The notes beneath the pieces are model-generated. The model did not search any database, was not told the DNA's origin, and saw nothing but the letters and a program-made list of their open reading frames with translations. Made by a program: the position numbers and the translations under genes. This document shows positions 6,010 through 35,765 of a stretch of 64,000 nucleotides of DNA, piece after piece (within the stretch, counting starts at the first letter, position 1; each line of letters begins with the position of its first letter). Source of the stretch: Actinomycetota bacterium (GTDB lineage Bacteria; Actinomycetota; Acidimicrobiia; Acidimicrobiales; SZUA-35); assembly GCA_039029735.1 (NCBI GenBank), contig JBCCFL010000034.1, forward strand, positions 1,890-65,889, in the 5' to 3' direction.

Positions 6010-6090
6010 TCCTCCCGGAGGAGGTCAATCGCCGGCTGACGTTGGAGAGGATGAGCCGAGGCCTGGCCTCAGCTCACGATGGAGGTGGGT

Positions 6091-7233: not shown

Positions 7234-7279
7234 GTGTTCTACCTCTCCTTGCGGGCGGTCTGGTTGCTGGCGGGGCGCA

Positions 7280-7771: not shown

Positions 7772-7924
7772 GTACCCTCCTCACCTGTGCCGGTGGGCCC
7801 GGCGTTCCTCACCTGTCGTGCATCGTCGCACGCCATCAACAACGTCGCGTGATCAGGCTTGGTTCCCGAACTCGCATCGATCTCGGGTCGTGGCCGATCC
7901 ATAGAAACCATTAGCGTAATTGTG

Positions 7925-11637: not shown

Positions 11638-11766
11638 GGCAGTCCTCACGATGCGATGTTGGGACGACGCAGGGTCGTGGCACCTGCACGCTACGAGGCT
11701 CGATCTGTTGGTGCCAAGGTTGTGGCCACCCGGCACTCATGCGGCCCTCCGGCGGCCTCGGTGGCG

Positions 11767-12276: not shown

Positions 12277-12283
12277 CCCCGAT

Positions 12284-13462
12284 CTAGATCCGATCGATGA
12301 TCGTGCCCGTTCCCAGTCCACCGCCGCAGCACATCGTGATGAGGGCGCTGTTCTTGTCGGCTCGTTCGAGCTCGTGCAGCGCCTTGGTCATCAGGAAGGC
12401 TCCGGTGCCTCCGAGCGGGTGGCCCAATGCGATGGCGCCACCGTTGGGGTTGACGATATCCATGTCGGCCCCGAGCTCCCGCTGCCACGCCAGCACAACG
12501 GAGGCGAACGCCTCGTTGATCTCGACGAGGTCGACGTCGCTCATCGTGCGACCGGTGCGCTCGAAGAGGCGACGGGTGGCGTCGATCGGGCCGGTGAGCA
12601 TCAGCACCGGATCCACACCCACGAGACAGGTGTCGACGATCTTGGCCTTCGGGGTGAGCCCCAGCTGCTGGGCCTTGTCGGCGTTCATGATCAGCACCGC
12701 CGCTGCCCCATCGGAGATCTGCGACGATGAGCCAGCGGTGTGCACACCGTTCTCTCGGGCGACGGCCTTGAGGCCGGCGAGGCCTTCGAGCGTGGTGTTG
12801 CGGAGGCCCTCGTCGCGCTCAACGAGATGCGTGGTGCCGGTGGGCGCGCCGTCGTCGTTGACGTCGGGCGCCTCGATCGCGTGCACCTGAGACCCGAAGC
12901 GATCCTCGGCCCACGCCTGGGCGGCGAGGGTCTGTGAGCGGAGACCGAACTCATCGGCGTCGGCCCGGGTGATGTTCCACTTGTCGGCGATGCGCTCGGC
13001 ACCCTCGAACTGGCTCGTGAACTCGTACTCGTTGAAGTAGGTCTTGGGAATGGGCACACCGAGGCCCAACTTCTTCGACGAGTTCATGCCAATCGGGATG
13101 CGGCTCATCACCTCGACACCACAGGCGATCGCAACGTCGACGACGCCCGACTGCACCAGGGCCGTGGCCATGTTGGTTGCCTGTTGCGACGACCCGCACT
13201 GCGTGTCGACCGTGGTGGCGGGCGTCTCCATCGGCAGGCCGGCCGTGAGCCACGCCGTGCGGCCCACGTTGAAGGACTGTTCGCCGACCTGGCTGACGCA
13301 CCCGGTGACGACCTGGCCCACCTCGGCCGGATCGATACCAGTGCGGCGGATCAGTTCGGACTGCACCTCGGCGAGGAGATCGACCGGGTGCACGGTTGAC
13401 AGACCGCCGTTGCGGCGGCCGATCGGGGACCGGACAGCTTCGATGATGACGACGTCGCTCAT
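12284..13462 (-). CDS. Acetyl-CoA C-acyltransferase (thiolase, FadA-like)
   Basis: TVDTQCGSSQQA, NEAFA, GGAIALGHPLG, CCGGGLG. Confidence 0.95.
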   Translation of the reverse strand: MSDVVIIEAVRSPIGRRNGGLSTVHPVDLLAEVQSELIRRTGIDPAEVGQVVTGCVSQVGEQSFNVGRTAWLTAGLPMETPATTVDTQCGSSQQATNMATALVQSGVVDVAIACGVEVMSRIPIGMNSSKKLGLGVPIPKTYFNEYEFTSQFEGAERIADKWNITRADADEFGLRSQTLAAQAWAEDRFGSQVHAIEAPDVNDDGAPTGTTHLVERDEGLRNTTLEGLAGLKAVARENGVHTAGSSSQISDGAAAVLIMNADKAQQLGLTPKAKIVDTCLVGVDPVLMLTGPIDATRRLFERTGRTMSDVDLVEINEAFASVVLAWQRELGADMDIVNPNGGAIALGHPLGGTGAFLMTKALHELERADKNSALITMCCGGGLGTGTIIDRI

Positions 13463-13495
13463 GGGGCGAGCTTAGGTTCTCCGGCTCTGGGACCG

Positions 13496-13666
13496 TTAAG
13501 CGGCGGCGCGGGCGGGGGCGGCGCCCTCGGCGGTGGCGTAGGGGCGGTGCGAGCGGCCGAGGGCAGCCCGGGCATCAGCCAGGCCCCGGCGGCCGACCTT
13601 GATGGTGTGATCGTCGAGCTTCCAGAGCTCTTCGTCGAACGAGATGAGGTGGAGTTGGTGTGCCAT
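13496..13666 (-). CDS. Small hypothetical protein (56 aa), absent from the supplied ORF track
   Basis: MAHQLHLISFDEELWKLDDHTIKVGRRGLADARAALGRSHRPYATAEGAAPARAAA*; GC3-biased codons; -10-like GATACT 6 nt before the ATG. Confidence 0.72.
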   Translation of the reverse strand: MAHQLHLISFDEELWKLDDHTIKVGRRGLADARAALGRSHRPYATAEGAAPARAAA

Positions 13667-13672
13667 GGGACG

Positions 13673-13694
13673 AGTATCACGAAGGGGTGTGACA
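13673..13694 (-). promoter_or_regulatory. Possible PafBC/RecA-NDp-like promoter for the 56-aa ORF
   Basis: Minus strand reads TGTC-ACACCCCTTCGT(12 nt)-GATACT-6 nt-ATG; one mismatch in the -10 element. Confidence 0.45.
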
Positions 13695-13851
13695 CTGAAG
13701 CCACAGAACGGCGTTCGGGCTGGTCAGAGACCCTTCCTCACCGGATCGAACGGCGTGTGACGAGCGTCAGACCGGCCCACGCGGCCAGGCAGAAGGTGGC
13801 AACGGGGCCGTCGTCTGGGGCCGCGCCGCGGAGTTGGCTACGTTGGCCGCC

Positions 13852-14814
13852 ATGCGTCGCTACGGAATGACCGTTCCTTTCCCCGGTGTGAGCCTTTCCG
13901 ATCATGCGGAGTGGTACCGGGAGCTCGTCGATCTCGGCTACACCGACGTGTGGACCGCCGAGGCCGATGGGGCAGACGGGTTCACCCCACTCACCCTCGC
14001 CGCCGCCTGGGCCCCCGAGCTGCGACTCGGGGTGGCGATCGTGCCGGCCTACACCCGGGGCCCCGCCCTCCTGGCCCAGAGCGCAGCCGCACTGGCCGAC
14101 GCCGCCCCCGGCCGGTTCGTGCTCGGCGTCGGGTCGTCGTCGAACGTGATCGTGGAGCGCTGGAACGGCATTGCCTTCGACGAGCCCTACCGCAAGACCC
14201 GCGACGTGGTGCGCTTTCTCAAGGCGGCCATGACGGGGGAGAAGGTCACCGAGAGCTACGACACCTTCTCGATCAACGGCTTCCGTCTCGGCGTCCGCCC
14301 GGCCGAGCACCCGCCGATCCTCGTTGCGGCGCTGCGTGAGGGCATGCTGAAGATGGCCGGCCGAGAGGCGGACGGTGCCATCATCAACTGGCTCTCCGCC
14401 GACGATGTGCGCACCGTGGCCCCGATCGTCCATGCCCAGGGCGACGACAAGGAGATCGTGGCCCGGATCTTCGTGTGCCCGAGCACCGACACCGACACGG
14501 TGCGGGCTCAGGCCAAGCGGGCGATCGCCGCCTACCTGAACGTGCCGGTGTACGCCGCCTTCCATCAGTGGATCGGGCGTGGTGATCGCCTCCAGCCGAT
14601 GTGGGACGCATGGGCCGCAGGCGACCGGAAGCTGGCCCTGGAGGTCATTCCCGACGAGGTGGTGGACGAGTTGATCATCCACGGCTCGCCCGAGGCGTGC
14701 CGGGAGCACATCGACCGCTATTGCGAGGCCGGCGTCACCACGCCGGCGCTGTCGGTGATGGGGTTCGCCGGGGTGGATCCGCGCCAGGCCATCCGCGATC
14801 TCGCACCCCGCTGA
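13852..14814 (+). CDS. LLM-class F420-dependent oxidoreductase
   Basis: LGYTDVWTAE.DGADGFTP, GRFVLGVGSSS, AALREGMLKMAG.EADG. Confidence 0.92.
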   Translation: MRRYGMTVPFPGVSLSDHAEWYRELVDLGYTDVWTAEADGADGFTPLTLAAAWAPELRLGVAIVPAYTRGPALLAQSAAALADAAPGRFVLGVGSSSNVIVERWNGIAFDEPYRKTRDVVRFLKAAMTGEKVTESYDTFSINGFRLGVRPAEHPPILVAALREGMLKMAGREADGAIINWLSADDVRTVAPIVHAQGDDKEIVARIFVCPSTDTDTVRAQAKRAIAAYLNVPVYAAFHQWIGRGDRLQPMWDAWAAGDRKLALEVIPDEVVDELIIHGSPEACREHIDRYCEAGVTTPALSVMGFAGVDPRQAIRDLAPR

Positions 14815-14882
14815 TCCGACCGAAGCGCGGGAGTCGACCGTCGATCGCTGCAGGACCGGTTGCAACGGTCGATCAGAAAAGG

Positions 14883-15371
14883 ATGGAGCCGACCAGGATC
14901 TATCCCCTGTTCTTCGGCGTCGCCGACTCCCTGCAGGCTCGCGGTGCGGCAGCTGTCGTCGGTCGACATCCCCGCTTCGAGATCGTTGGAGAGGCCTCGA
15001 ACTCGGTGATGACGGTCGACGGGGCCGAGCAGACCCAGCCCAACGTGGTGGTCATCTCCGAACACTCACCCGGGATGCCGGGATCCGCGGTGATCGGCGA
15101 ACTCGTGGCGATCGCCAGCCAGCCGCTGGTGATCGTGATCGGTCCAAACGGCTCGCAACCGGGCTACACGTCGGTTCTCGCCGTTCCTGAGCATGCGCCC
15201 GATGCACTGGCGAGGGCGCTCGATGCGACGGCCGCCCAGTTGGACAATCCAGACGCACGGATCGAGCGGCGCCGAGGCGCCGACCGGAGGGTCCAACAGG
15301 ATTGGAAGAAGGTCTTCGCCGAGCGACGAGTCACCGTTCGACGAGCGGCCGATCCGGAGGCCGAGAGGTGA
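14883..15371 (+). CDS. Degenerate receiver-domain protein with Arg-rich C-terminal tail
   Basis: FEIVGEAS...QPNVVVISEHSPGMPG aligns to NarL-type REC (PDVVLLD..MPG..G) but lacks the Asp; tail ERRRGADRR...ERR. Confidence 0.65.
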   Translation: MEPTRIYPLFFGVADSLQARGAAAVVGRHPRFEIVGEASNSVMTVDGAEQTQPNVVVISEHSPGMPGSAVIGELVAIASQPLVIVIGPNGSQPGYTSVLAVPEHAPDALARALDATAAQLDNPDARIERRRGADRRVQQDWKKVFAERRVTVRRAADPEAER

Positions 15372-15394
15372 TCGACGACTAGGGCTCGTCCGGC

Positions 15395-17818
15395 TCAGGC
15401 CGGGAGCCACACCAGCACGAAGTCCTCCACGCTGATGTCGTTCTTCTCCAGGCCGATCTCCACGGTGGTGACGTCGTCGGCCTTGGTCGACCACTCGTCG
15501 TCGATCTCGATGACGGCCTCGTTCAGCTCGTACTCGAGGTCCTCGAGCTCGTCGATCTTCTCGCCCACCCGATTGCGGGCCGCCTCCACCCGTTTCTTGG
15601 CCGCCGATGACATGCGAGCGCCCGATGCGGCGCGCCGAGCGGCCGTTGCCAGGCCCCGGGTTCGGCTCCGACCGCCGAGCAGACCGCCGAGCACGCTGGT
15701 GCCAACGTCCACCCACTGCTGATTGCGGCGACCTTCGGCCTGGGTCTCCAGTTCGGACATCCGATCCTCGGCCTTGGCCAACGCACGCTCGATCGTGGCC
15801 TTCTTCTTCTCCAGCCTGGTGCGAATCTTGTCGGTCTCGGCGTCGGCCCCGTCCTCGGCTGCTGCGCCGCAGCGGACCGCGAAGGCCTCGGCTGATTCGC
15901 CTGGCCGTGACCACAGCTTCAGCGACGGATTGTTCAGCAGCGACACTGTCATCGAGGCGTAGAGGTGGTTCTTCAGATCGGTCTGCGCCGATCGCAGCGC
16001 CGTCTTGGTCATCTTGGTCGGCGGCAGCACATAGACGGGACTGTCTGGCGCATCGCTCACCATGTCGCGGTCGTCGAGGTCGACGGCAACGGCGTCTTCC
16101 ACGACGAAGCCGTCTTCTGTGATCGGGATGATCGCCTCCCACTCGGTGGTGTGGCGCAGCTTCGCTTTCGTCTCGTCGAACAACAGCTGCACACGGGCCG
16201 CCATCGCTGGCCGCAGCCGGCCGGTGCCTCCTGGTTCGATTCCCACCGAGCCGAGCCACGGCGTGTCGGCGCGCACGTAGCGAACGGTGAGCGTGTCGGG
16301 CAGCTCGGGCATGAGGGTCGACTCGTCGTCGCCCAACTCGGGCCCGCGCGCTGGAGCCGAGGCGGAGGGTGCTGCGGCCGGGGCTGGCGCCGCGGTTGCG
16401 CTCGAACTGCTTGCCCCGCCGAGGGCGGCGGCCTGTTCGTCGGCCATGAGGCTCGTGATCTGGTCACCGGTGAGCGGGCCAGCCAGGTAGCTCATCGCCC
16501 AGCGGGTGGTGAGGAGCGGGAGGTCGCTCGAGCGTGTGGTGCGGAGCACAAACTGACGCTTGCCGAGCCCGGAGATGGTGGCCTCCAGGGCGGCCATGTC
16601 GGTTGAACCGTCGGCCGCCCGGAGGCCGTCGACGAGGCGAGCCTTGTCCTGCTCGGTCTGGAGGCGACCGATGAGCCAGGTGCCAGCGTTTGAGATCGCC
16701 TTGTAGTCGAGATCGACCGGGTTCTGGGTGGACAGCACGAGGCCGACGCCGAACGCACGGGCCTGCTTCAGCAGGGTCAGGATCGGCTTCTTCGGAGCCG
16801 GGTTGCCCACTGGTGGTGCCAGGCCCATCACCTCGTCGATGTACACGAGCACTCGCAGCTCGCCAGTACCGGGCTGCGTGCGCATCCACGAGATCAGCTT
16901 CGACAGGATCAGCGTGATGGCGAAGTGGCGTTCGGTCTCGCTGAGGTGGCTGAGCGACACCACCGACGCCCGGGCCCGACCGTCGGGGCGCCACAGCATC
17001 TGCTCGATGTCGAGCGGGGCACCCTCGGCCCAGCCGGCGAAGCTGGGCGAGGCGAGCAGGCCGTTCAGTGTCATCACCAGTTCCTGGCGGTCGTCAGCTG
17101 GGAAGAAGGTGTCGAGGTCCAACACGCCGAGCTTGCGGATCGGCGGGTCGAGGATCTGGCCGAGCAGGGTGGGGAGATCGAGATCCTGGCCGGCATCCCA
17201 CGACCGGGCGATCAGGTTGGCGAGCAGGATGTGCTCACGGCCCGAGAGCGGATCGCTGTTGATGCCAACGAGGCCGAGCAGGCCGCTCACGGTGGAGTCG
17301 ACCTCGTCCTGACGGGCTGACGCATCGGTGGTGGTCGGCACCGTGAGCCGGCCCAGCACGTCGAGCGGCACACCGGCGCGTGAACCGGGGGTGTAGATCA
17401 CCGGGTCGGCGGCTTCGGCCAGCGTGGCGACGTCGGGCGAGCCCATGCCCCACGAGTCGAGGCCGTTGCGCCACAGGTCGGCCGTCGACGCGGCCATCTC
17501 CGCGGTGGAGGTGCCCTGGACACGGGCCGTGCCGGCATCCATCCACGGCTCGAAGTCAGTGCCGTCGAGCGACGGGAAGGTGAGGCACAGGTTGCCGAGG
17601 TCACCCTTGGGGTCAATCGCCAGCACCGGGATGCCAGAGAGGAGTGCCTCCTCGATCAGCACCACGCCGAGGCCAGTCTTGCCCGAGCCGGTCATGCCAA
17701 CGATCACGCCATGGGTGGTGAAGTCGGCCGAGTCCAACAGGATCGGATCCCCTGTCCGATCACCGGAGTCGGCATCGATCGACTCACCAATGAAGAGGTG
17801 CCCCGCAGGTCGTTCCAT
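15395..17818 (-). CDS. HerA/FtsK-superfamily ATPase (DUF87/DUF853-like) with C-terminal coiled coil
   Basis: HGVIVGMTGSGKTG Walker A, IDPKGDL, VYIDEV Walker B, LLKQARAFGVG..LSTQNPVDLDYK. Confidence 0.88.
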   Translation of the reverse strand: MERPAGHLFIGESIDADSGDRTGDPILLDSADFTTHGVIVGMTGSGKTGLGVVLIEEALLSGIPVLAIDPKGDLGNLCLTFPSLDGTDFEPWMDAGTARVQGTSTAEMAASTADLWRNGLDSWGMGSPDVATLAEAADPVIYTPGSRAGVPLDVLGRLTVPTTTDASARQDEVDSTVSGLLGLVGINSDPLSGREHILLANLIARSWDAGQDLDLPTLLGQILDPPIRKLGVLDLDTFFPADDRQELVMTLNGLLASPSFAGWAEGAPLDIEQMLWRPDGRARASVVSLSHLSETERHFAITLILSKLISWMRTQPGTGELRVLVYIDEVMGLAPPVGNPAPKKPILTLLKQARAFGVGLVLSTQNPVDLDYKAISNAGTWLIGRLQTEQDKARLVDGLRAADGSTDMAALEATISGLGKRQFVLRTTRSSDLPLLTTRWAMSYLAGPLTGDQITSLMADEQAAALGGASSSSATAAPAPAAAPSASAPARGPELGDDESTLMPELPDTLTVRYVRADTPWLGSVGIEPGGTGRLRPAMAARVQLLFDETKAKLRHTTEWEAIIPITEDGFVVEDAVAVDLDDRDMVSDAPDSPVYVLPPTKMTKTALRSAQTDLKNHLYASMTVSLLNNPSLKLWSRPGESAEAFAVRCGAAAEDGADAETDKIRTRLEKKKATIERALAKAEDRMSELETQAEGRRNQQWVDVGTSVLGGLLGGRSRTRGLATAARRAASGARMSSAAKKRVEAARNRVGEKIDELEDLEYELNEAVIEIDDEWSTKADDVTTVEIGLEKNDISVEDFVLVWLPA

Positions 17819-17951
17819 GCGGTCACCATACGGCGTCTCAAGTACGGTCTCGGCCCATGCAGCCAAGAGGACAGCTCTCATCATTCCGAACGTGTCCAGC
17901 CGAGGACGTTTCGACGCAGTCGAAACTCCGTACGTGAGCGGAGCGAGCGAC

Positions 17952-18737
17952 ATGCAAAGCAAGACGCTGGAAACGCTCATCGTCGACGTGGCTGACAACG
18001 GCGTGGTCACCGTCACGATGAACCGCCCCGAGAAGAAGAACGCGGCCAACGCCACGATGTGGACCGAGCTCCGCGAGACATGGACCGAGATCGGGCTCGA
18101 CCCAACCGTGCGCTGCGTGGTGATGACCGGCTCCGGTGACGCCTTCTGCTCAGGCGCCGACCTCGGTGGGCAGGGTCAGGAGCGTCATCAGCTGCAGGCG
18201 ATGAACGAGATCCACATGACCCTGCAGGCGTTCCACTCGATGATGATGCCCGTTGTGGCCAAGGTGAACGGCGTGGCCGCCGGGGCCGGGATGAACATGG
18301 CCCTGGCGTGCGACATCTTGATCGCCAGCGATCAGGCCCGGTTCTCCGAGATCTTCGCCCGTCGGGGCCTCACGGTCGACTTCGGCGGCACGTGGATGCT
18401 GCCCCGACTCATCGGCCTGCACAAGGCGAAGGAGCTCGCCTTCTTCGGCGACGTGATCTCGGCCGCCGATGCCGAGCGCTTCGGGTTCGTGAACCGGGTG
18501 GTGCCCCACGACGTGCTCGACGACACGGTGGACTCCTGGGCTGATGCCCTTGCGGCCGGCCCGCCTCTGGCGCTGTCGATGACGAAGCGGCTGCTCACCC
18601 TCAACGCCACCAACGACTTCTGGAGCGCCCTCGAGGCCGAGGGGATGGCCCAGACCGTCAACTTCGGCACCGATGACACCCGCGAGGCAATCAAGGCGTT
18701 CCTCGACAAGCGTCCCCCGGAGTTCCGCGGCCGCTGA
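17952..18737 (+). CDS. Enoyl-CoA hydratase/isomerase
   Basis: MNRPEKKNA, AFCSGADL, VNGVAAGAG..ALACD, RRGLTVDFGG. Confidence 0.93.
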   Translation: MQSKTLETLIVDVADNGVVTVTMNRPEKKNAANATMWTELRETWTEIGLDPTVRCVVMTGSGDAFCSGADLGGQGQERHQLQAMNEIHMTLQAFHSMMMPVVAKVNGVAAGAGMNMALACDILIASDQARFSEIFARRGLTVDFGGTWMLPRLIGLHKAKELAFFGDVISAADAERFGFVNRVVPHDVLDDTVDSWADALAAGPPLALSMTKRLLTLNATNDFWSALEAEGMAQTVNFGTDDTREAIKAFLDKRPPEFRGR

Positions 18738-19126
18738 CCGTCTGGCCGATCCCAATGGCCACCGGAGCATCGCTGGAGGGTGCGTCGCCGAGCCTGCTCG
18801 CATCAATCGCCGAGGCCGCCCCAGACTGACCGGTGGTCAGGTTGTGGTTGCGAGAAACGCTGCGGCGCTGACCAGGGCCGACGGTGTGAACGCTTTGAGA
18901 ACCGGCCGGGGTGCTCTTGACAAACGGCTCCGACTCGGTCACCAGGGTAAGGGGTCACACGCCACGGGGTTCCGGATGGTGTTTTCCCTGGTCAGAGCTT
19001 TGGTGTATCACGCCCCTGGGGGTACTGGGTTACAGTGGCGCCCAAGCGGGAATCCGAGCGGAATGGCGAGGACACCGTCAACGTTCTCTCTGGAGAACGC
19101 AATCGTCCCGGCATGAGGAGGCCACA

Positions 19127-19306
19127 ATGACTGAGGCTGAAGCCACCATCGACATCGTTGAAATCACCTCCATCGAGGAAGCCCTCGCCCTGATCGACCA
19201 GGGCCTCGGCGTCATGACCGATCGTCAGTTGGTGTCGACCGCCGAGGTGACAGATCTGCTCCTCGACGTACGTGCCCTGCTGAGCGAGTCGGCCGCCAAC
19301 TCATAG
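19127..19306 (+). CDS. Small acidic helical hypothetical protein (59 aa)
   Basis: Strong RBS GAGGAGG before the ATG; MTEAEATIDIV...VSTAEVTDLLLDVRALL; TACAGT -10 at 19031. Confidence 0.75.
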   Translation: MTEAEATIDIVEITSIEEALALIDQGLGVMTDRQLVSTAEVTDLLLDVRALLSESAANS

Positions 19307-19837
19307 GCGTCCGCGGCCCAGCGGCCAGAACCGCTGGGCCATTCGGGCGAACACCACGCCCACCACCACCCCAGCGGCGACGTCGGACGCATGATGCATG
19401 CGGTTGTGCACCCTGCTCAGCGCCACGATCGATCCCAGAATCGCCCAGATCGGGCGCGCCCGAGGAATCGACTCGGAGAGCAACAACGCCGCCAGCGTCG
19501 CTGAGCTGGCGTGCCCACTTGGGAAGCTGGCCGTCTTGGGCCGCCGCACCTCGTAGGCCCGCTCCTCGGACAGTGGCGGCCGCTCGCGCCGAAAGATCCG
19601 CTTGATCCCCTGGTTCACGACGAGCGACTCGATTCCGAGCATCACGGCGAGGCGAACGGCGTGCGGGCGGTGCCCGGGCCGCACCACGGCGATGGCGATA
19701 CTGATCGCGTGCCAGGCCACCGAGAAGTCGGCGGCCTCACTGGCGGCGGCGAACACGGCGTCGGGCACGGGTTTGCCCCGCACACGCTCGAACTGGGCGT
19801 CAACTGCCTCGTCGATCTGATGCACCGGGCCAGTCAC
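19301..19837 (-). CDS. PAP2-family phosphatase
   Basis: K.IFRRERP, SFPSGH, SRVHNRMHHASD catalytic motifs. Confidence 0.92.
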   Translation of the reverse strand: MTGPVHQIDEAVDAQFERVRGKPVPDAVFAAASEAADFSVAWHAISIAIAVVRPGHRPHAVRLAVMLGIESLVVNQGIKRIFRRERPPLSEERAYEVRRPKTASFPSGHASSATLAALLLSESIPRARPIWAILGSIVALSRVHNRMHHASDVAAGVVVGVVFARMAQRFWPLGRGRL

Positions 19838-19888
19838 GGGCCACAGCCTACGGCGGCGGTGGCCCCTGACATGGCCGGGTGAATCCGA

Positions 19889-20677
19889 TCAGCCCTTCGG
19901 CGCTGGATTGAAGGCCGGCTCACGCTTGGCCAAGAAGGCGTCCATCCCCTCGTGCGCCTCAGGGGTGTCGAACAGGGCGTAGTAGCTGCGGCGCTCGAAG
20001 AGCACGCCCTCGGCCAGGCTCGTCTGCTCCGCCCGATCGACGGCCTCGGTGGCCACCGTGGTCACGTGGCGGGCGAACCCACCGATGGTGGCCGCCACCT
20101 CCCGAGCTGTGGCGAGCAGTTCGCCGTTGGCCACGACACGGCTCACCAGCCCGGCCCGTTCGGCCTCGTCGGCCCGCATCATCCGGCCGGTGAGGATCAG
20201 GTCCATCGCCTTGGCCCGCCCCACGAGGCGGGTGAGGCGTTGGGTGCCGCCCATGCCGGGAATGAGGCCCAGCTTGATCTCCGGCTGGCCGAACCGGGCA
20301 GATTCACCGGCCAGGATCACGTCGCACATCATGGCCAGCTCGCAACCACCGCCGAGGGCGTAGCCGTTCACTGCTGCCACTTTCGGGATTCGGAGCGCAG
20401 CCAGGTCGTCCCATGGCGCGAACACGTTGGCGGCCGTCATGGACCGGTACGTGTGGCGTCGGAGTTCGCTGATGTCGGCCCCGGCGGCGAAGGCCCGGTC
20501 ACCGCTGCCGGTGATCAGGATGCAGCCGATCTCGGGATCGGCGTCCGCCGCCGTGGCCTCGGCCACGAGCGTGGTCATCACGGTGTGGTCCAATGCGTTC
20601 AGCACCTCGGGTCGATTGATGGTCAGCTCGAGCACCCGACCGTGGCGCTCGATCTTCACGACCTCCGGGCCGCTCAT
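19889..20677 (-). CDS. Enoyl-CoA hydratase (EchA8/PaaF-like)
   Basis: AFAAGADI, GYALGGGCELAMMCD, FGQPEIKLG, PGMGGTQRL; ATGA overlap with the upstream gene. Confidence 0.93.
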   Translation of the reverse strand: MSGPEVVKIERHGRVLELTINRPEVLNALDHTVMTTLVAEATAADADPEIGCILITGSGDRAFAAGADISELRRHTYRSMTAANVFAPWDDLAALRIPKVAAVNGYALGGGCELAMMCDVILAGESARFGQPEIKLGLIPGMGGTQRLTRLVGRAKAMDLILTGRMMRADEAERAGLVSRVVANGELLATAREVAATIGGFARHVTTVATEAVDRAEQTSLAEGVLFERRSYYALFDTPEAHEGMDAFLAKREPAFNPAPKG

Positions 20678-22083
20678 GAGTCCCAGATGGCGCCGTAGGC
20701 GGGGATGCCTCGACGTTCCATGCCCTCGACCACCTTCCAGGTGAGGGTCTTGTTCGAGATGCAGATCACGGCCTCGGCGTCGAACGCCTGCACGGCCTGC
20801 CACGTGAGTTTCACCATGTCGGGTTTGCCCTTGGCGGTGGTGTCCCAGAACGTGGCGTTGGGTTCGACGTCGAGGATCTCATCCACGAGCCCCTGGCCGT
20901 AGGTCGTCCACGGGTCACGCGTGGCCCACACGAGATGGGCTGGCACCTCCTGGGCCAGCAGGTGGGGGAGCGTCGGGCCGATACCGCTTCCGGTGGCCAC
21001 CCACACCACCCGCGTGAACAGGCGGTCCACGTTGCCGACACCGGCGGTGGTGATGCCCTTCACCCACACGTGCGATGGCATGTCGTCGATGAACTGGCCC
21101 GTCCAGTCGCCGGCCCGCGAGATCGTGAGGCGGAAGCCGCTGCGATCCGGGCTCGGAACGTTGGCGAACGAGTGCCACTCCAGCAGTGGGTTCCGACTCA
21201 GCGTGGTGGAAGATCCGGCGAAGGGCGTCTCGCCGTAGTCGAAGCGGGCCAGGGCCACGTGGTCCGATGGCCGCTCGATGTCGACCGGCACCTTCTTCAG
21301 CCGCATCCAGGGCAACGCCACGCTCAAGGTCACCAGCGCAAGGAGCCAAACCCCGAGCGAGCTGCCCACGGCGGTGCCAAGGGCGGTGCTGCCTCGCCCA
21401 GCGTCGATGAACAGGATGGTGAACACCCAGAACAGCGCCAGCGACATCCAGCCGCCGAAGCGGTGCATCCGTTCGAACAGATCGTGGTGGGCAGCGCGGA
21501 AGGTCGGAATCGAGAAGCCGATCAGGGCGCCAAGCAATGCAGCGAGCCCCGCAGCCACGACGATCAAGCCGGTTGACACGCCAGGCCGATCGGTGGCCGC
21601 GTGCCACCCGAGCGAGCCCAACAGCACCACGAACCACAACGAGCCAGCGATGGCCCCTCCCACGTGGACACCACCGAAGTGGTACACCTTGCCGAGCACT
21701 CGACGAATCGAGAGCGGCCATGACGTGGGCGCAGCGGTTGCCACCCGGAACAACAGGTTGATCACGTGCTGCTGGCGGATTCCGATCGCCACCGTGAGGT
21801 TCACGATCGCCACGTTGGCCACCGCTTCCAGGGCGATGTCGCCCTGGAACCACCCGCCGGGCCCGATGGCGTAGACGGCGAGCGCCGCGTTGATTGCCAG
21901 CATCGTGACTGCCAGCCGGTTGTGGTGCATGAGCCGCTTCGTCGCCCAGATCCGGCGATGCCACGGCAGGAGGGGAGGCAGCTCGACTCGGCCGTGGTCG
22001 TCGGCGTCATAGAGGGGGATCGGCTCGCGCCGTGACGGCGCGCCGTCCAGATCCATTTCGGGGCGGGGATCGAGGGCAGTCAT
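20674..22083 (-). CDS. Integral membrane protein with C-terminal FAD/NAD(P)-binding FNR (ferric-reductase-like) domain
   Basis: About six TM helices with His (YHFGGVH, HHDLFERMHRF), then EWHSFA (FAD), AGDWT, VATGSGIGP (NAD(P)); ATGA overlap with the A-domain gene. Confidence 0.82.
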   Translation of the reverse strand: MTALDPRPEMDLDGAPSRREPIPLYDADDHGRVELPPLLPWHRRIWATKRLMHHNRLAVTMLAINAALAVYAIGPGGWFQGDIALEAVANVAIVNLTVAIGIRQQHVINLLFRVATAAPTSWPLSIRRVLGKVYHFGGVHVGGAIAGSLWFVVLLGSLGWHAATDRPGVSTGLIVVAAGLAALLGALIGFSIPTFRAAHHDLFERMHRFGGWMSLALFWVFTILFIDAGRGSTALGTAVGSSLGVWLLALVTLSVALPWMRLKKVPVDIERPSDHVALARFDYGETPFAGSSTTLSRNPLLEWHSFANVPSPDRSGFRLTISRAGDWTGQFIDDMPSHVWVKGITTAGVGNVDRLFTRVVWVATGSGIGPTLPHLLAQEVPAHLVWATRDPWTTYGQGLVDEILDVEPNATFWDTTAKGKPDMVKLTWQAVQAFDAEAVICISNKTLTWKVVEGMERRGIPAYGAIWDS

Positions 22084-23720
22084 CGGGCCACCCCCTCGGC
22101 CTTCGCCTGCTCGAGCAGGAGTCGCTTGTCCACCTTGCCCCGGGAGGTGCGCGGGAGCTCGGCCAACGCCTGCACACGGGCCGGCACGCAGTAGTAGGGC
22201 AACATGTCGGCCACGGCCTCGGCGGCTGCCTCCACGTCCACCGTCTCGGGTTGGACGAAGGCCACCAGGGTGCGGTCGTCGTATTTGAGTGCGACCGCCG
22301 CCGTACACCCGGCTGCCGTCTCCAGGGCCGCCGACACGCTGTCGAGCTCCACCCGGAAGCCACGGATCTTCACCTGGTCGTCGGTCCTGCCGAAGTGCTC
22401 CAGCTGGCCATCGGCTGTCCAGCGGCCGAGGTCGCGGGTGCGGAACATCATCCGGCCCTCGCCCAGGAACGGGTCTGGGGCGTAGCGTTCCGCGGTGAGC
22501 TCGGGGTTGTGCAGGTAGCCAGCGGTCACACAGTCGCCGCCGGCCCACATCTCACCCACCTCACCGATCGGTAGAGGCCTCCGCTGTTCGTCGAGCACAT
22601 ACACCGTGTTGTTGGGAGTGGGGCGCCCGATGGTGAGATGGCCGACCTCGGGTCGGTAGTGCTGGGCGGTGTTGATGATCGTGGTTTCCGTTGGGCCACA
22701 CGAGTTGTGGAACCGGGCGAAGGCGCCCCAGGTGTCGGCGAGTGGCTTGGGGCAGGGCTCTCCCGCCACGGCGACCACGGACACCTGCTGGCAGCGGGTG
22801 GCGTCGATCGAGCCCAGGATCGACGGGGTGGCGATGATGACGTCGACCTGTTCGGCCACGGCTTGGATGTCGCGACCCCTGATCACGAGGGTGGCGCCGT
22901 TCATCAGCGCCCCGAGCGTCTCCCACGCCGCCATGTCGAAGGCGATGCTGAGGATCTGCCCCACACGCATCCCGGGGCGCATGCCGAGGTCGCCGGGCGA
23001 GGTGAGCAACACGTTGCACACGTTGCCGTGGGTGACCTGCACGCCGTTCGGCCGGCCGGTGGTGCCCGACGTGAACAGGATGAAGCATCGGTGATCAGGC
23101 GAGACATCAACCGATGGGGCGGTCGCGGCGAGAGTCGAGGGATCATCGAGCACCTCGGCCGCTGCCATCAGCGCGTCTATCGCGATCACTGTGGTGCCGG
23201 GAAGGTCAGGTAGTTCGTCGAGCAGGTCGGACAGCGTGAGCACGACGGATGCGCCGATCTCGTTGGCCACGTGCTGGAGCTGACTGGCAGGGGCGACACC
23301 GACGTGCTGGGGGACGTACGCCGCCCCGACCTTGAGCGTTCCCAGCATGCCGACCACCATCGGGATCGACCGGCTCAGGAACAGTGCCACGTTGTCGCCG
23401 GGCCGCACCCCCAGTTCGATCAGTTGCTGTGCCAGGCGGTTGGCGTGGGCGTCCAGGTGGCCGTAGGTGATGGTGGAGCCTTGGTGCTCGACCGCAGTTG
23501 CCAGCGGGCGTTCCGCGGCGCGAGCTTCGAACGCCTCGTGGATCAGCTGGTGCCGGGGAGCCACGGCCGGCCCCTGACCGAAGCGGACGAACTGCTCCTG
23601 ATGAGCCGGTGCCAACGAGGCGAGCGCCGAGCGGAGGATCTCCGGCGGGTCGGCGATGTGGACCTCGGTGGTTTGGGGCCCGGTTTCGGGCACGCGGGTG
23701 GGAACAATGGTCGTGGCCAT
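22080..23720 (-). CDS. Stand-alone NRPS-type amino-acid adenylation domain (no T or C domain)
   Basis: A2 LKVGAAYVP, A3 FTSGTTGRPNG, A4 FDMAAWE, A5 NSCGPTE, A7 FRTRDL, A8 GRTDDQVKIRGFRVEL, A10 GKVDK; ends about 14 aa after A10; AAGGAG RBS. Confidence 0.9.
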   Translation of the reverse strand: MATTIVPTRVPETGPQTTEVHIADPPEILRSALASLAPAHQEQFVRFGQGPAVAPRHQLIHEAFEARAAERPLATAVEHQGSTITYGHLDAHANRLAQQLIELGVRPGDNVALFLSRSIPMVVGMLGTLKVGAAYVPQHVGVAPASQLQHVANEIGASVVLTLSDLLDELPDLPGTTVIAIDALMAAAEVLDDPSTLAATAPSVDVSPDHRCFILFTSGTTGRPNGVQVTHGNVCNVLLTSPGDLGMRPGMRVGQILSIAFDMAAWETLGALMNGATLVIRGRDIQAVAEQVDVIIATPSILGSIDATRCQQVSVVAVAGEPCPKPLADTWGAFARFHNSCGPTETTIINTAQHYRPEVGHLTIGRPTPNNTVYVLDEQRRPLPIGEVGEMWAGGDCVTAGYLHNPELTAERYAPDPFLGEGRMMFRTRDLGRWTADGQLEHFGRTDDQVKIRGFRVELDSVSAALETAAGCTAAVALKYDDRTLVAFVQPETVDVEAAAEAVADMLPYYCVPARVQALAELPRTSRGKVDKRLLLEQAKAEGVAR

Positions 23721-23933
23721 CGTGATCTCCTTCTCGTTCGATGACGGCGGGCTGCGCCTCGCGGTGCTCGGCTCCGTTTCCGAGGTCGGGACGCAGGTCG
23801 GCAAACCGGGCCATCCCGGTGATGGATCCGTGCTTTCACCGGTGTTCAGTGCACGATCAGAGATATGACCACCCGGTCAGAGTCATGACACACGGCGCAT
23901 CGGGATTGGCCGCGGTCGGCTAGACAGGAGTGC

Positions 23934-24938
23934 ATGGATCAACCGCTCCGATTCGGGATCCTGGGCGCAGCCCGGATCGCACCCAAGGCTCTGATCGATC
24001 CGGCGAAGAAGGTCGACTCAGTTGTGGTGACGAGGGTCGCCGCCCGGGATCGGTCGCGGGCCCAGGCCTTCGCCGCCGAGCACGGCATCGCAGGCGTGGC
24101 CGATGACTACCAGGCCCTGGTGGAGGCCGACGACGTGGACGTGGTGTACAACCCGCTGCCGATGTCGCTCCATGCCGAGTGGACGATCGCCGCCCTTCGA
24201 GCGGGCAAGCACGTGTTCTGCGAGAAGCCTTTCGCCGCCAATGCCACTGAGGCCCAGGAGATGGTGCGGGTCGCCGACGAGGAGGGCCTCGTGCTCGGCG
24301 AGGCATTCCACTATCGGTACCACCCGCTGTTCGGACGCCTTCTGGACGAGGTGCAGTCCGGCCGGATCGGCGACCTTCGGCGCCTGGACGCCTCGTTCTG
24401 CGTGCCGATTGGTCGCCCTGACATCCGGTGGGACTTCGCAACAGCCGGGGGCTCGTTGATGGACCTCGGGTGCTATCCGATGAGCTGGGTGCGCCACATC
24501 ACCGGCGCCGAGCCCACTGTGCGTTCGGCAACGGCCACTGTGCTCGACGACGCTCCCCACATCGACGCCGACATCGAGGCCAACCTGGCGTTCCCTGGTG
24601 AGGTCGAGGCCCGAGTGACGAGTTCGATGATCGACGAGAACCGTCGGATCGAGCTCGTCATCGAAGGCACCGCCGGCCGCATCGACGTGGTCAACCCGAT
24701 GGCACCCCAGATGGGCAATCTCGTGCGGATCGAAACCGAGCGAGGTGTGACTGCGGGCCCCATCGACGGTGGCATCAGCTATGACCACATGTTCCGTGCC
24801 TTCGTGGACCACCTCTGCCTCGGTGCGCCGTTCCCCACTCGAGGAGCGGACTCGGTGGCCAACATGGCGGCGATCGACGCGGTCTATGCCGCCGCGGGGC
24901 TCCCCGTCCGAGGCACCGATCCGGGTGACGGGTCATGA
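23934..24938 (+). CDS. Gfo/Idh/MocA oxidoreductase
   Basis: GILGAARIA, GKHVFCEKP, GGSLMDLGCY. Confidence 0.93.
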   Translation: MDQPLRFGILGAARIAPKALIDPAKKVDSVVVTRVAARDRSRAQAFAAEHGIAGVADDYQALVEADDVDVVYNPLPMSLHAEWTIAALRAGKHVFCEKPFAANATEAQEMVRVADEEGLVLGEAFHYRYHPLFGRLLDEVQSGRIGDLRRLDASFCVPIGRPDIRWDFATAGGSLMDLGCYPMSWVRHITGAEPTVRSATATVLDDAPHIDADIEANLAFPGEVEARVTSSMIDENRRIELVIEGTAGRIDVVNPMAPQMGNLVRIETERGVTAGPIDGGISYDHMFRAFVDHLCLGAPFPTRGADSVANMAAIDAVYAAAGLPVRGTDPGDGS

Positions 24939-27249: not shown

Positions 27250-27305
27250 GTCCGGCCGGAGTGGCCTCCTAAGTTGGCCTGACATCCGAGTTCTTGGGAG
27301 GCCAC

Positions 27306-28103
27306 ATGTCCGACGCTGTGCTGTACGAAGTCGACGATCACGTGGCGGTGATCACCCTCAATCGCCCCGACCGGCTGAACGCATGGAACGATGCCATCCA
27401 CCGGGGCTACTTCGATTCCCTTGATCGCGCTGCCGCCGACCCCGACGTGCGGGTGATCGTGGTCACCGGTGCCGGCCGCGGGTTCTGTGCGGGTGCCGAC
27501 ATGAACGTGCTCCAGGGCATCGGCGAGGGCCGAGGCGCGGAGGAAACCAGTGGTGAGCCCGACCTGCGCGACGCACGTCATGCGATGTCGATTCCCAAAC
27601 TGGTGATCGCCGCCGTGAACGGTGCGGCTGCCGGGCTCGGCCTCGTGCACGCAATGGCGGCCGACATGCGCTTTGCCGCGGAGGGCGCCAAGTTCACTGT
27701 GGCGTTCAGCCGGCGGGGGCTGGTTGCCGAGCACGGCCTGTCATGGACGTTGCCCCGCCTGGTCGGCCAGGCGGTGGCGATGGATCTGATCGTGTCGGGC
27801 CGGGTGATCCTGGCCGAGGAGGCGAAGGAGCTCGGGCTCGTGAACCGGGTGTCGGCCCCTGACGCATTGATGGAGGAGACGCTCGCCTACGCCAAGGACG
27901 TGGCGGCCAATGTGTCGCCCATGTCGATGGCCATCATGAAGCACCAGGTGTACGAGCATCCTCTCATGAGCCTCGACGACGCCATGGACGAGTCGAACCG
28001 CCTCATGCGCGAGTCGCTGCGCCGCCCCGACTTCAAGGAGGGTGTCGCCAGCTTCGTCGAGAAGCGGCCGCCGCAGTTCGCCCCGTTCTCCGGGATGCCG
28101 TAG
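27306..28103 (+). CDS. Enoyl-CoA hydratase/isomerase
   Basis: LNRPDRLNA, GFCAGADM, FSRRGLVAEHG; GGAGG RBS. Confidence 0.93.
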   Translation: MSDAVLYEVDDHVAVITLNRPDRLNAWNDAIHRGYFDSLDRAAADPDVRVIVVTGAGRGFCAGADMNVLQGIGEGRGAEETSGEPDLRDARHAMSIPKLVIAAVNGAAAGLGLVHAMAADMRFAAEGAKFTVAFSRRGLVAEHGLSWTLPRLVGQAVAMDLIVSGRVILAEEAKELGLVNRVSAPDALMEETLAYAKDVAANVSPMSMAIMKHQVYEHPLMSLDDAMDESNRLMRESLRRPDFKEGVASFVEKRPPQFAPFSGMP

Positions 28104-30449: not shown

Positions 30450-33400
30450 TCAGCCCTCGTCGCCGGGGGCGGGGGCGGGATCTGGATCTGGATCGGGCGC
30501 TGGGTCCGGGATCGGCTCGGGCTCGGGCGTCGGCTCGGGCTCGGGCTCCGGCGTTGGCGGCAGCGTCGGACCCGCCGGATCAGGGGGAACGGTGGAGTTG
30601 CCGTTGCAGTCCAGACCCTCGGCCGGCCGATACAGGGCGAACACGGAGTCCTCGACCACCTCGCCGCCGGGGTAGGTGCGGATCCGAGGTGTGGTGTAGA
30701 TCGAGCACTGGCCCCGTGAGCTGCGGAGCAGTGGCAGGTCCTCCACCTCGATGTGCTTGGTCGAATAGAAGGTGACCGTGATCGAGGTGCTCGTGTAGGT
30801 CGGCCACACCAGAATCCCGTAGTCGGTGGTGTTCTTCACCGACAGGTCGGGGCGAGGGAACGAGATCGTGGCCTCGCGGCCCCGCGGGTAGCGGGTGAAG
30901 TAGAGCGAGTGCGACTGGTACTCGTTGAAGTCGAGGCCGGCGTAGAACGCGGCATTGAAGAACGTGGTGGCGAACTGGCTCACGCCTCCGCCCACCTGAG
31001 GCTCCAGCACGCCATTGGCGATGGCACCGGCGGCTACGAAGCCGTTCTCGGTGGTGCGGCGGCCGACGTGGCTGTTGAGGGAGAAGTCCTCGCCGGGGCG
31101 GATGATCACGCCGCTTGTGAGATCGGCGAAGCGCTGGATGTTGGTGACGCGACCCTGGCAGCACGAGTGGTTCGTGGTGAAGGTGCTCACCTCTTCGATG
31201 ATCCCGAGCGACTCAAGCTCGGTGACACCCTCGTCACTTCCGACGACCTCGGGCTCGATCACGACCACCCGGCGCTCGGCCTCGTCGTCCTCGTCCTCGT
31301 CGTCCTCGTCCTCGGCCTCGGTGTCGTTCGAGGGGGGAGGGGGTGGCGACGCCAGGTCGTCCTTGAGATCACCGACCGAGACGACGTCGCAGCAGACGAC
31401 AGTCTCCGACGCAGGCACGATCACCGGTTTGTCGTTCACGATCGTGAACCGAGCCTGCTGATCCTCCGAGCCGAGCACGGGGAAGGCAGGCTTGAGCACG
31501 TCCAGGGCACGGTCGGTGTCGATCACCCAGCCGGCCTCGCCGTCGTCGAGCGTCAACTCGACCCAGCTCTGGAGGTCATCCCGGCTGATCTCGGCCGTGG
31601 CGTCGAGCACCTGCACCAGGAGAGGGCTCGCCGTTGCCTCATTGGCCTCGTCGGCCACGTTCTGGATCTGGCCGTCGGTGTAGACCGGGATGGCTTCGTC
31701 GGCATCGAGTTCCACCATGCGGTCGCCGCCGTCGCCGAGTGCCGCCGGAAGGGCAGCGGCCAGCTGATCGGTGTCGAAGGTGATGGCGGTGGCGCCCGGC
31801 TCGACGCGGAACTCGTTGTTCGTCAGCACGAGCTCCGGTTCCCGAGGCTCGCCCAGCTCGGTACTGATCAGAGCCGAGCCGGCGTCGGCCGTGACCTCGG
31901 AGTCAACGAGGTAGGTCGGCTCGATCACCGTCTCACCGAAGAAGCTGCCGACCCAGCGGAACGGGCCGCCCCGGCGGGCCTCGAGAGCGGCGTCGGTGAT
32001 GGTCTCGGCGTCCAGCGATGCGCCGAGGCTCGCGGCAGATGCCGAGATGGTCTGCTCGCCGACCACGAGTTCGAGGTCGGTGTCGGCCAGATCGGCGTCC
32101 AGATCGGCGATGGTGTCGGCGAGCTCCTCTTCGCTCTGACCACCGATCGGGGTGGAGCCGAGCACGGTGCCTCGGGCCACCTCACCTCGGGTGAGGATCG
32201 AGTCGAGTAGCCATGCGGCCAGGAACAACACCACGACGCCCACGAGCACGAACGCAACGGCCGTGACCGGGCGAAGGCCCCGTGAGCGTCCGGTCTTGAC
32301 TGCGGGGACGGCGGCCGGCGCATCACTCGGGGCGACCGCCGGGTCGCCGACGGGGATGACCATTGTGTCGCCCCCGACGTCGGCGGGGAACTCCTTCGTG
32401 GTCTCCTCAGCCGTGGTGTCATCAGCGTCGGCCGGGGTGGGGATGGCGACAGTTGCGTCGGCGTCGTCTGGCGAGTGCTCACCGTCAGGCTTGGTGTCGG
32501 TGTCGGTGTCGGGGGCAACGAGTGGAACTGCAGGCGCAGACCCTGTTGCGGCGCCGGAGGTGGTCGGTTGGAAGCCCAGGGCGACGGTCTCCGCCTCGCC
32601 TGGCCCCGACGACGGCGCAGCCGCACTGTCGGGCGGTGGTGGCGATGCATCCGACGTGGTGGCGCCGTCGTCGCCGCCGGACTCGGCCGCCTTGATCTTC
32701 GCCACCTCGGCCGCTCCGAGGGCGACCGTGTCGTCAACGGCGTCGGCGGCGTCGGTGCTGCCCGAGGTTTCACCAGCCGGACTGTCGGCCGAGGTGTCGG
32801 TTGCGCCGAGAGCCACGGTGGCATCCGTCGTGTTGTCGCTGGAGCCAGCGGCGTCTGCTGCCGCGATCGCAACGGTTGCGTCCGTGACGGGATCGCTGGC
32901 GTCAGCGTCGGTGGCGGCGTCGGCCGCGCCGAGGGCGACGGTCGCGTCGGAGGTGTCGTCGTCGGCCCCGGCCGGCGGGTCCTCGTCAGTGGGCTGGAAG
33001 CCGAGCGCGATCGTGGCGGCGTCGCTGGTTGCGGGAGGCTCGGGCGTCGCCGCTGGCGGGCGGCTCACGATCACGGTGTCGTCAGGGTCGCCAGCCGCAT
33101 CGGTCGCCGGCTCGTCGATGGTCACGCCATCGGTGCCGACTGGATCGGTCGGAGGGGTGTCGCTCGGAGCCGCAGCGGCGCTGGCGTTGACGATCACCGT
33201 TGGATCGGCGTCGTCGAGATCGGTCGGTGAAGGCGGAGGTACCACGTCCGCTCCGTCGGCATCACCTGGGCCATCTGGACCAGTCGCATCGGGAGCAGAT
33301 TCACCTGGGTGGGCGGGAGGCGACGGCGGAGTGGCCACGCCCACGATCACCGTGGCGTCACTGGCGTCACTGGCGTCACTGGCGTCACTGGCGTCACTGG

Positions 33401-34706: not shown

Positions 34707-34808
34707 TGGACAAAGAGTTTGCCATGGGCGAACCCCCAGGTCCGCTCATGGTTTTCGTGTTTCTCCGGAGCTGTGACATGATCGAAACCCGCACAGGGGA
34801 GGTAGCCA

Positions 34809-35735: not shown

Positions 35736-35765
35736 CCCATTCGCTCCAACCAGGAGGACAACACC

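Follow-up and report, generated by a model that had tools for sequence, protein, structure and literature searches.

The closest described relatives of the system reported here are the fungal TmpL (Alternaria brassicicola and Aspergillus fumigatus), TmpB and ChNPS12-type proteins, in which an adenylation (A) domain of the nonribosomal peptide synthetase (NRPS) type, lacking thiolation (T) and condensation domains, is followed by six transmembrane helices and a FAD/NAD(P) domain. Flavin binding has been shown for the recombinant C-terminal domain of TmpL, and TmpL mutants exhibited disturbed amounts of reactive oxygen species (ROS) together with virulence phenotypes (PMC2766074). In Aspergillus nidulans, AN9129 has been renamed TmpB; both TmpB and its stand-alone paralogue TmpA are plasma membrane proteins whose pathways yield extracellular sporulation signals, TmpA shares its pathway with the 4CL-like CoA ligase AfeA encoded by the neighbouring gene, a crotonase gene adjoins tmpB in Aspergilli, and the predicted substrate of the fungal A domain is a hydrophobic amino acid (PMC4804170). 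Kim et al. described TmpL orthologues in 2009 as confined to filamentous fungi (PMC2766074), while Bushley and Turgeon found that bacterial stand-alone A domains nest in the ChNPS12 clade and read them as trans-acting NRPS parts (PMC2823734). In this study, we analysed a 64,000-nucleotide stretch of DNA (the window; positions 1,890 to 65,889 of contig JBCCFL010000034.1, assembly GCA_039029735.1) from an Actinomycetota bacterium, which holds three chained genes, A, B and C (the triad), that almost certainly constitute a bacterial split-gene module of the TmpL/TmpB type joined by a conserved crotonase. Our literature searches found no paper describing such a bacterial operon.

Organization of the triad and comparison with its fungal counterparts

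On the minus strand, the genes follow one another in the order A, B, C and are chained through two ATGA overlaps (22083-22080 and 20677-20674), as had been recorded in an initial reading made from the sequence alone (hereafter, the sequence-only reading). The features of the triad are as follows.

23727..23733, minus strand: Shine-Dalgarno-like GAAGGAG, 6 nt ahead of the gene A ATG (direct reading)
22080..23720, minus strand: gene A, stand-alone NRPS-type adenylation enzyme of 546 amino acids (aa) (P0001) without a T/peptidyl carrier protein (PCP) domain; ATG 23720, TGA 22080 (PF00501, TIGR01733)
22080..22083, minus strand: ATGA overlap of the A stop and the B start (direct reading)
20674..22083, minus strand: gene B, TmpA/TmpL-type membrane flavoprotein of 469 aa (P0002); ATG 22083, TGA 20674 (PF26733, '03009_C')
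21304..21921, minus strand: B residues ~55-260, predicted six-helix membrane domain of the ferric-reductase fold (hydropathy, K/R counts, conservation, Atlas model)
20677..21300, minus strand: B residues 262-469, domain of the NOX/FRE type, predicted to bind FAD and NAD(P)H (motifs EWHSFA, AGDWT, GSGIGP and C-terminal GAIWDS; profile comparisons)
20674..20677, minus strand: ATGA overlap of the B stop and the C start (direct reading)
19889..20677, minus strand: gene C, canonical crotonase/enoyl-CoA hydratase of 262 aa (P0003); ATG 20677, TGA 19889 (PF00378)

Whereas TmpL and TmpB are each a single polypeptide, the window encodes the corresponding parts in two translationally coupled genes, with the crotonase in the same operon. 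Within a 994-aa protein of A. fumigatus, the N-terminal half aligned with the product of gene A (E 7e-138, 45% identity over 516 aa) and the C-terminal half with that of gene B (43% identity, 97% coverage, E 3.5e-109). B also matched A. nidulans AN9129 (40% identity, E 1.4e-98), 96-97% of its length being covered across both fungal matches, and further fungal matches of B were basidiomycete proteins named 'nonribosomal peptide synthetase 12'. The 994-aa protein was taken as TmpL because its length (PMC2766074) and its species agree. The likeness to TmpL and NPS12, which the sequence-only reading had made to hinge on homology of B to the TmpL C-terminus, was thus borne out for both proteins. 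Beyond the common order of domains, the binding-pocket code, the A5 Cys and four His residues are shared between the window and the TmpL/TmpB/NPS12 proteins. In contrast, PKG and NTGDL of the fungal A domains correspond to PNG and RTRDL in the bacterial ones, and the fungal roles in sporulation signalling, ROS balance and virulence have no known bacterial counterpart. The A. nidulans pair TmpA and AfeA resembles the window in combining a stand-alone membrane flavoprotein with a separately encoded adenylate-forming enzyme, but AfeA is a coumarate-ligase-like CoA ligase rather than an NRPS-type A domain, and the tmpA and afeA genes are divergent, not overlapping.

Gene A was shown to encode a full adenylation domain (PF00501, E 5.5e-70), which scored 336.3 bits against TIGR01733, above the curated cut-off of 317.4 bits. 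Its best PDB matches were NRPS A domains (LgrA, E 2.7e-111), and DltA models matched it at E ~1e-55. A Pfam scan of A at E ≤ 0.1 listed no PP-binding (PF00550) match, and the protein ends 17 residues past the A10 lysine, in agreement with the earlier description of a complete, T-less A domain terminating just after A10. The motifs TSGTTGRPNG, NSCGPTE and RTRDL are all present. In an alignment of 75 bacterial and 11 fungal A domains, the pocket code read D-M-W-I-A-A-[S/A/C]-I-[V/I]-K in both kingdoms, with the pocket positions mapped to PheA 235/236/239/278/299/301/322/330/331/517, a numbering that was in part presumed. This numbering agrees with that in PMC4804170. The alpha-amino-binding Asp (PheA 235; D262 in A) and the catalytic Lys (PheA 517; K529 in A) were kept in all 75 bacterial relatives. 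Since the pocket code is common to bacteria and fungi, an alike or identical alpha-amino acid is expected to be the substrate in both. It had also been suggested that three deviations from the usual A-domain motifs mark this subfamily. Two of them did so for the bacterial branch only, namely PNG for PKG (Asn in 75/75 bacteria, Lys in 10 of the 11 fungi) and RTRDL (Arg in 69/75 bacteria and 0/11 fungi, which have NTGDL); the Tyr-to-Cys exchange in NxYGPTE that gives NSCGPTE, found in 75/75 bacteria and 9/11 fungi, turned out to be a feature of the whole family.

B contains six hydrophobic segments as judged by hydropathy, and the motifs EWHSFA, AGDWT and ATGSGIGP were located at residues 302-307, 324-328 and 363-370, respectively, which matches its earlier description as a protein of about six transmembrane helices with ferric-reductase-like motifs; binding of flavin and NAD(P)H is predicted from these motifs. 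Local Pfam and NCBIfam scans assigned no family to B, and neither Ferric_reduct, FAD_binding_8 nor NAD_binding_6 matched it at E ≤ 0.1. Meanwhile, a large protein database lists PF26733.1 for B, a family that the ESM Atlas names '03009_C / Adenylate-forming reductase 03009, C-terminal', and the Atlas clusters nearest to B by features are labelled 'Integral membrane protein TmpA' (score 0.98). The Atlas further provides a confident predicted model of B itself (pTM 0.85). In comparisons in which both sides were predicted models, whole B gave a TM-score of ~0.7 (0.71) against FRE and NOX1, and residues 40-265 gave 0.65-0.67 against Ferric_reduct/YedZ. At the sequence level, only the FAD/NAD part was recognisable as related to ferric reductases and NOX: hhalign of B against the genome's own ferric-reductase protein yielded 92.6% probability (E 4.4e-7) over residues 296-377, and the B profile searched against PDB sequences gave a weak NOX2 match (E 0.0084) confined to the FAD motif LEWH[SP]F...GDWT. 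According to these models, B would share a six-helix fold and a FAD/NAD(P)H domain with NOX2, FRE, bacterial FRD-FAD-NAD proteins and YedZ/MsrQ, and the EWH[PS]F...GDWT and GxGxxP motifs are common to B and the NOX/FRE family. B differs from that family in lacking the two-haem His pairs and matches to the three Pfam models, and in having its conserved residues at the cytoplasmic face only.

This last difference was evident from the conservation pattern of the membrane domain. H135, H140, H200 and H207, spaced as H135-x4-H140 and H200-x6-H207, were its only invariant histidines (30/30 bacteria and 28/28 fungi), and they belong, together with the C-terminal GAIWDS, to the 100 positions of B conserved in both the bacterial and the fungal sequences. 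Other conserved polar residues were R103, Q104, N109, R127, Y134, R196, E204 and R208, and the TM2-TM3 loop, in a further difference from the NOX/FRE family, is long and conserved. The N-terminus, loops 103-138 and 192-211, and the stretch past residue 260 are rich in K/R and are therefore taken to be cytoplasmic. Every polar residue conserved in the membrane domain falls in such K/R-rich loops or at cytoplasmic helix ends, and none was found on the periplasmic side in the sequences compared (30 bacterial, 28 fungal). B lacks the Hx12-14H pairs by which two haems are held on helices 3 and 5, whereas a 542-aa ferric-reductase/NOX-like protein of the same genome, used as an internal control (contig C2; L093:1087-2715), has both Hx13H and Hx12H. 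Because these pairs are absent, B does not encode a wire of two haems spanning the membrane, and the sequence suggests that B can hold at most one haem or a metal at the cytoplasmic face, beside the flavin domain. A 2.3-bit stretch aligning H207 with the helix-5 His of NOX2 was regarded as a hint only.

The third gene encodes a crotonase of the housekeeping type (PF00378, E 7.7e-67; M. tuberculosis EchA8, E 5.2e-85), in keeping with its previous assignment as an enoyl-CoA hydratase. Both catalytic residues, Glu113 and Glu133, are present and were conserved in 78/78 aligned partner crotonases. Since the enzyme keeps both catalytic Glu residues and resembles EchA8, a CoA thioester is implied.

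Conservation of the triad and absence of carrier machinery nearby

B was scanned for in one genome per species across 185,579 species, and at least 520 of 596 candidate stretches were confirmed; the locus counts in this report refer to the best 80 of these at least 520 loci, which span Actinomycetota, Chloroflexota, Bacteroidota, Pseudomonadota and Myxococcota. The A-domain gene lay directly upstream of B on the same strand in 80/80 loci (being cut by contig ends in L003, L007, L021, L066 and L068), and the crotonase gene lay downstream of B in 79, the one exception, L036, having no downstream DNA left. Because the same order recurs in the best 80 loci of other genomes, the gene arrangement is far beyond chance. 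The sequence-only reading had envisaged a two-gene bacterial form of TmpL. Its A-B pair was indeed found to be conserved in bacteria, but the unit comprises three genes, since the crotonase is as conserved as the A-B pair and has been reported beside tmpB. In L055, from a metagenome-assembled genome of Caldilineaceae, the A gene lies in two adjoining pieces in different frames (L055:1619-2966), ending at query residue 480, which may point to a frameshift, to decay of the gene or to a fault in the assembly.

A and B occupied one reading frame in 22 of the 80 loci and were separate in 58. In a tree of 105 B sequences (FastTree, midpoint root), the fused or split state required at least seven changes; the tree mostly followed the phyla, and the fungi formed one separate clade with a support of 100. 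Pairwise identities over 72 loci correlated with r of 0.90 for A and B, 0.64 for B and the crotonase, and 0.68 for A and the crotonase, values to which kin contribute non-independently.

The triad also occurs in cultured Streptomyces, Micromonospora, Salinispora, Aquimarina and Microbulbifer, and the isolate record of Microbulbifer sp. CP128431.1 annotates the three genes, in the same order, as 'AMP-binding protein / hypothetical protein / enoyl-CoA hydratase-related protein'. Its distribution is nevertheless rare and patchy, with 2/101 sampled genomes of the order and 4/401 of the phylum carrying it, the source genome included. A phylum-wide scan of the 401 genomes at E ≤ 1e-6 revealed no distant B paralogues besides the four orthologues. 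Of 1.84 billion cluster representatives searched with a profile, 482 matched at E ≤ 1e-30. Homologues of a length similar to B numbered more than 2096 proteins (8000 candidates scored), and the 120 of them listed were 57-71% identical, belonged to PF26733 and were nearly all named 'hypothetical protein'. Longer proteins matching B numbered 228 and were both bacterial and fungal. Bacterial fusions of ~1000 aa combining PF00501 with PF26733, 47-65% identical to B, were found in Aquimarina, Fulvivirgaceae and Pantoea.

Clustering of the flanking genes identified only one further conserved gene, DUF6733, which was limited to Bacteroidota; the remaining clusters reflected lineage synteny. This gene (PF20507, ~244 aa, with a signal-peptide-like N-terminus) stands right after the crotonase gene in the same orientation, separated from it by a median of ~67 nt (for example, L012:8286-9032), in 22 loci, all of them Bacteroidota (L002, L004, L005, L010-L012, L014, L016, L020, L023-L026, L029, L032, L035, L039, L040, L043, L044, L046 and L059). 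DUF6733 may be a fourth, lineage-specific member of the system, perhaps providing an outer-membrane passage for the product.

The genome (6.05 Mb in 99 contigs, 96.8% complete) was scanned for carrier machinery. These genome-wide scans gave 8 PP-binding, 4 Condensation, 1 ACPS and 10 Thioesterase matches, all outside contig C34 (67.9 kb), on which the window lies, and the Pfam scans of the 45 other open reading frames (ORFs) of the window listed no carrier, condensation, phosphopantetheinyl transferase (PPTase) or thioesterase domain. The earlier statement that no such gene is nearby was confirmed accordingly. PF00550 was found in none of the 120 listed longer homologues of B, the phosphopantetheine (Ppant)-site motif GG[DH]S[LIV] occurred in 0/22 fused A-B ORFs, and no carrier gene was among the conserved neighbours of the triad in the 80 loci. 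In addition, the fused ORFs were mostly ~1003-1049 aa long, compared with 546 + 469 aa in the window, and these lengths leave no room for a T domain. In view of the missing PF00550 matches, the missing Ppant-site motif and the lack of a conserved carrier neighbour, it seems unlikely that A loads a carrier encoded elsewhere.

Proposed carrier-free mechanism and alternative explanations

Whereas the homology, the retained gene order and the repeated A-B fusion were demonstrated here, the following mechanism is inferred. A would adenylate an alpha-amino acid, for which Asp235 and Lys517 (PheA numbering) are kept, and the acyl group would then pass, most likely, to the thiol of free CoA, since no carrier domain is available; A would accordingly act as an aminoacyl-CoA ligase. 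DltA and its homologues form aminoacyl-CoA once CoA replaces the carrier (PMC4176424). In DltA, an NRPS-type adenylation enzyme, this use of the CoA thiol is a side activity and the natural acceptor is the carrier DltC, whereas no carrier is linked to A of the window. The pairing of TmpA with the CoA ligase AfeA suggests the same CoA route, and, as an intact housekeeping-type crotonase always accompanies A and B, a 2-enoyl- or 3-hydroxyacyl-CoA intermediate is implied. Membrane-bound B, located beside A, would draw electrons from NAD(P)H and relay them via FAD to the cytoplasm-facing four-His site, holding one haem or a metal, and would oxidise or reduce the CoA-bound substrate at C2-C3. It might do so either by desaturating the aminoacyl-CoA ahead of hydration or by reducing the dehydration product of a 3-hydroxy aminoacyl-CoA such as seryl-CoA, the catalytic role of the four-His site being a putative one. 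The crotonase would hydrate or dehydrate the same C2-C3 position. A small, modified derivative of an amino acid would result, and fungal genetics suggests that it may be diffusible. We consider it very probable that A, B and C act on one substrate. The choice of CoA as the acyl acceptor is more tentative and falls just short of probable, and the best explanation taken as a whole, that is, a TmpL/TmpB/NPS12-type three-enzyme module operating by this carrier-free mechanism, appears evenly balanced between right and wrong.

Several points weigh against this explanation. NRPS A domains normally require a Ppant carrier, NOX-type domains normally only shuttle electrons, and we know of no member of the triad or TmpL family, in bacteria or in fungi, with a known substrate-to-product reaction. 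Stand-alone ORFs of carrier size (100, 103 and 160 aa) and one PPTase gene are present on other contigs of the genome. The crotonase was a different paralogue, with 39% identity, in 2 of the 79 loci (L035 and L069), and was 1.2 kb distant in one locus (L008). B-like proteins with 47% identity on Pantoea piersonii plasmids (as in L106, NZ_CP104760.1, match 6001-7242) have neither an A-domain match nor a crotonase match within 6 kb, and copies with 31% identity on cyanobacterial plasmids lie amid transposase genes, as exemplified by Fischerella (L105, AP018300.1, match 7001-8182); such stand-alone bacterial B-like proteins look like counterparts of the stand-alone fungal TmpA. Furthermore, other chemistry has been proposed for the family, namely an aldehyde-forming 'adenylate-forming reductase' (Kalb 2014 and Brandenburger, as cited in other papers) or a route in which the activated amino acid is oxidised (PMC4804170).

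The aldehyde-forming alternative would make the triad a carrier-free adenylate-forming reductase, in which the flavin domain of B reduces an aminoacyl-adenylate or aminoacyl-CoA to an amino aldehyde, possibly followed by dimerisation to pyrazine-type volatiles or signals, the crotonase being an accessory or acting on another substrate. The name of PF26733, 'Adenylate-forming reductase 03009, C-terminal', and the NAD(P)H- and FAD-binding motifs of B speak for it, as do the fungal class IV adenylate-forming reductases (C. subvermispora Nps1; C. cinerea 03009, after which PF26733 is named, and 06235), which were compared here through citing papers: PMC8070225, citing Kalb 2014, describes the 'Type IV (L-serine reductases)' as an A domain with an FNR domain at the C-terminus, and PMC9605436, citing Brandenburger, gives Ala/Val/Ser specificity for 03009 and 06235. 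Among the matches listed, none was identified as 03009 itself. This alternative leaves unexplained the intact crotonase found in 79/80 loci and beside tmpB in Aspergilli, and it assigns no role to the conserved four-His membrane site. Moreover, to our knowledge, there is no precedent for reducing an acyl-adenylate to an aldehyde by means of a flavin. We regard the aldehyde route as rather unlikely. A catabolic function appears improbable as well. Here, the ligase, a flavoprotein dehydrogenase or enoyl reductase, and the hydratase would form a beta-oxidation-like route that channels an unusual amino or beta-amino acid into general acyl-CoA metabolism rather than producing a signal. Such a sequence of enzymes does parallel the way in which beta-oxidation begins, acyl-CoA genes abound in the window, and C is a housekeeping-type crotonase. 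However, the acyl-CoA neighbours do not accompany the triad in other genomes, its rare and patchy occurrence fits specialised metabolism, a NOX-type NAD(P)H-binding domain would be an odd choice for a dehydrogenase, and the phenotypes of fungal mutants concern signalling and redox rather than growth on a nutrient (PMC4804170, PMC2766074).

If A instead served an NRPS in trans, by loading a stand-alone carrier or an NRPS encoded elsewhere, B and C would be tailoring enzymes. The genome's NRPS genes and small carrier ORFs (contigs C3, C6, C11, C24 and C44) could supply such partners, and the interpretation corresponds to that of Bushley and Turgeon for the bacterial A domains in the clade (PMC2823734). 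It is rendered very improbable by the lack of carrier, condensation, PPTase and thioesterase matches on the 67.9-kb contig and of a conserved carrier neighbour in the 80 loci, and by the repeated T-less fusion, which ties A to B and not to an NRPS. Scarcely credible, finally, is the notion that B is a true NOX or ferric reductase that moves electrons across the membrane for metal reduction or superoxide formation, with A merely regulating it. The TM-scores of the Atlas models against FRE/NOX1 and Ferric_reduct/YedZ and the disturbed ROS of TmpL mutants (PMC2766074) are consistent with this notion, but B lacks the two-haem Hx12-14H pairs that the control protein from its own genome retains, shows no conserved polar residue on the periplasmic side, and gave no match to the three Pfam models of such enzymes at E ≤ 0.1.

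Genomic surroundings and meaning of the triad

The window has a G+C content of ~68%. Downstream of gene C lies one gene that may be co-transcribed with the triad.

19301..19837, minus strand: PAP2 phosphatase gene, 51 nt downstream of C (PF01569)

Upstream of the triad, the Pfam scan of the window ORFs identified a divergent GFO/IDH/MocA oxidoreductase gene. Both this gene and the PAP2 gene were considered as further members of the triad and rejected, as neither had a listed match of at least 80 aa in any of the 80 loci. An Rfam search of 18800-24300 gave no match at E ≤ 1. In the promoter and terminator scan, no promoter-like site was detected, and the single terminator-like site, situated inside gene B, was within the shuffle expectation.

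Judged by the Pfam scans, the 45 (17 + 28) other window ORFs are common chromosomal genes, and many serve acyl-CoA metabolism. The regions 9988-18737, 27273-28103 and 34806-36638 hold genes for an AidB-like acyl-CoA dehydrogenase, a thiolase, a luciferase-like monooxygenase, two more crotonases, an SDR protein and a MaoC hydratase; none of the acyl-CoA metabolism neighbours was conserved with the triad in other genomes. At 15395-18055 on the minus strand, an 886-aa ORF with only a short HerA/DUF87 match overlaps the plus-strand ORF 17424-18737, whose true start is probably near 17990, because its crotonase domain begins at residue 191. The 1431-aa ORF at 30450-34745 (minus strand) has a C-terminal VanW domain as its sole Pfam match, and the ORF at 62355-63695 (minus strand) pairs sigma-70 region 4 with ricin-type lectin domains, which is an unusual combination.

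The triad is a split, operonic variant of a known, chemically unsolved family. tmpA has been studied since 2006 and TmpL since 2009, and these proteins matter for sporulation signalling, for oxidative-stress balance, and for the virulence of a plant and a human pathogen. The bacterial operon revises the 2009 view that the family is confined to filamentous fungi. As a compact, intron-free operon with products 40-45% identical to the fungal proteins and with conserved catalytic residues, it offers a direct route to the chemistry of the family through heterologous expression and in vitro reconstitution. It is conceivable, although we hold it doubtful, that the triad represents an ancient carrier-free NRPS-like pathway common to bacteria and fungi. 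In it, loading of an amino acid onto free CoA would be followed by desaturation or reduction of the aminoacyl-CoA at a new, cytoplasm-facing four-His haem or metal centre, belonging to a protein of the ferric-reductase fold that no longer moves electrons across the membrane, and by a finishing crotonase step, to give a diffusible signal or redox metabolite of the TmpB/TmpL type. If this is true, the bacterial operon would hold every enzyme needed for that product. The triad would also add a carrier-independent mode to NRPS-type enzymology, as well as a form of the ferric-reductase fold that does not shuttle electrons and may be catalytic.

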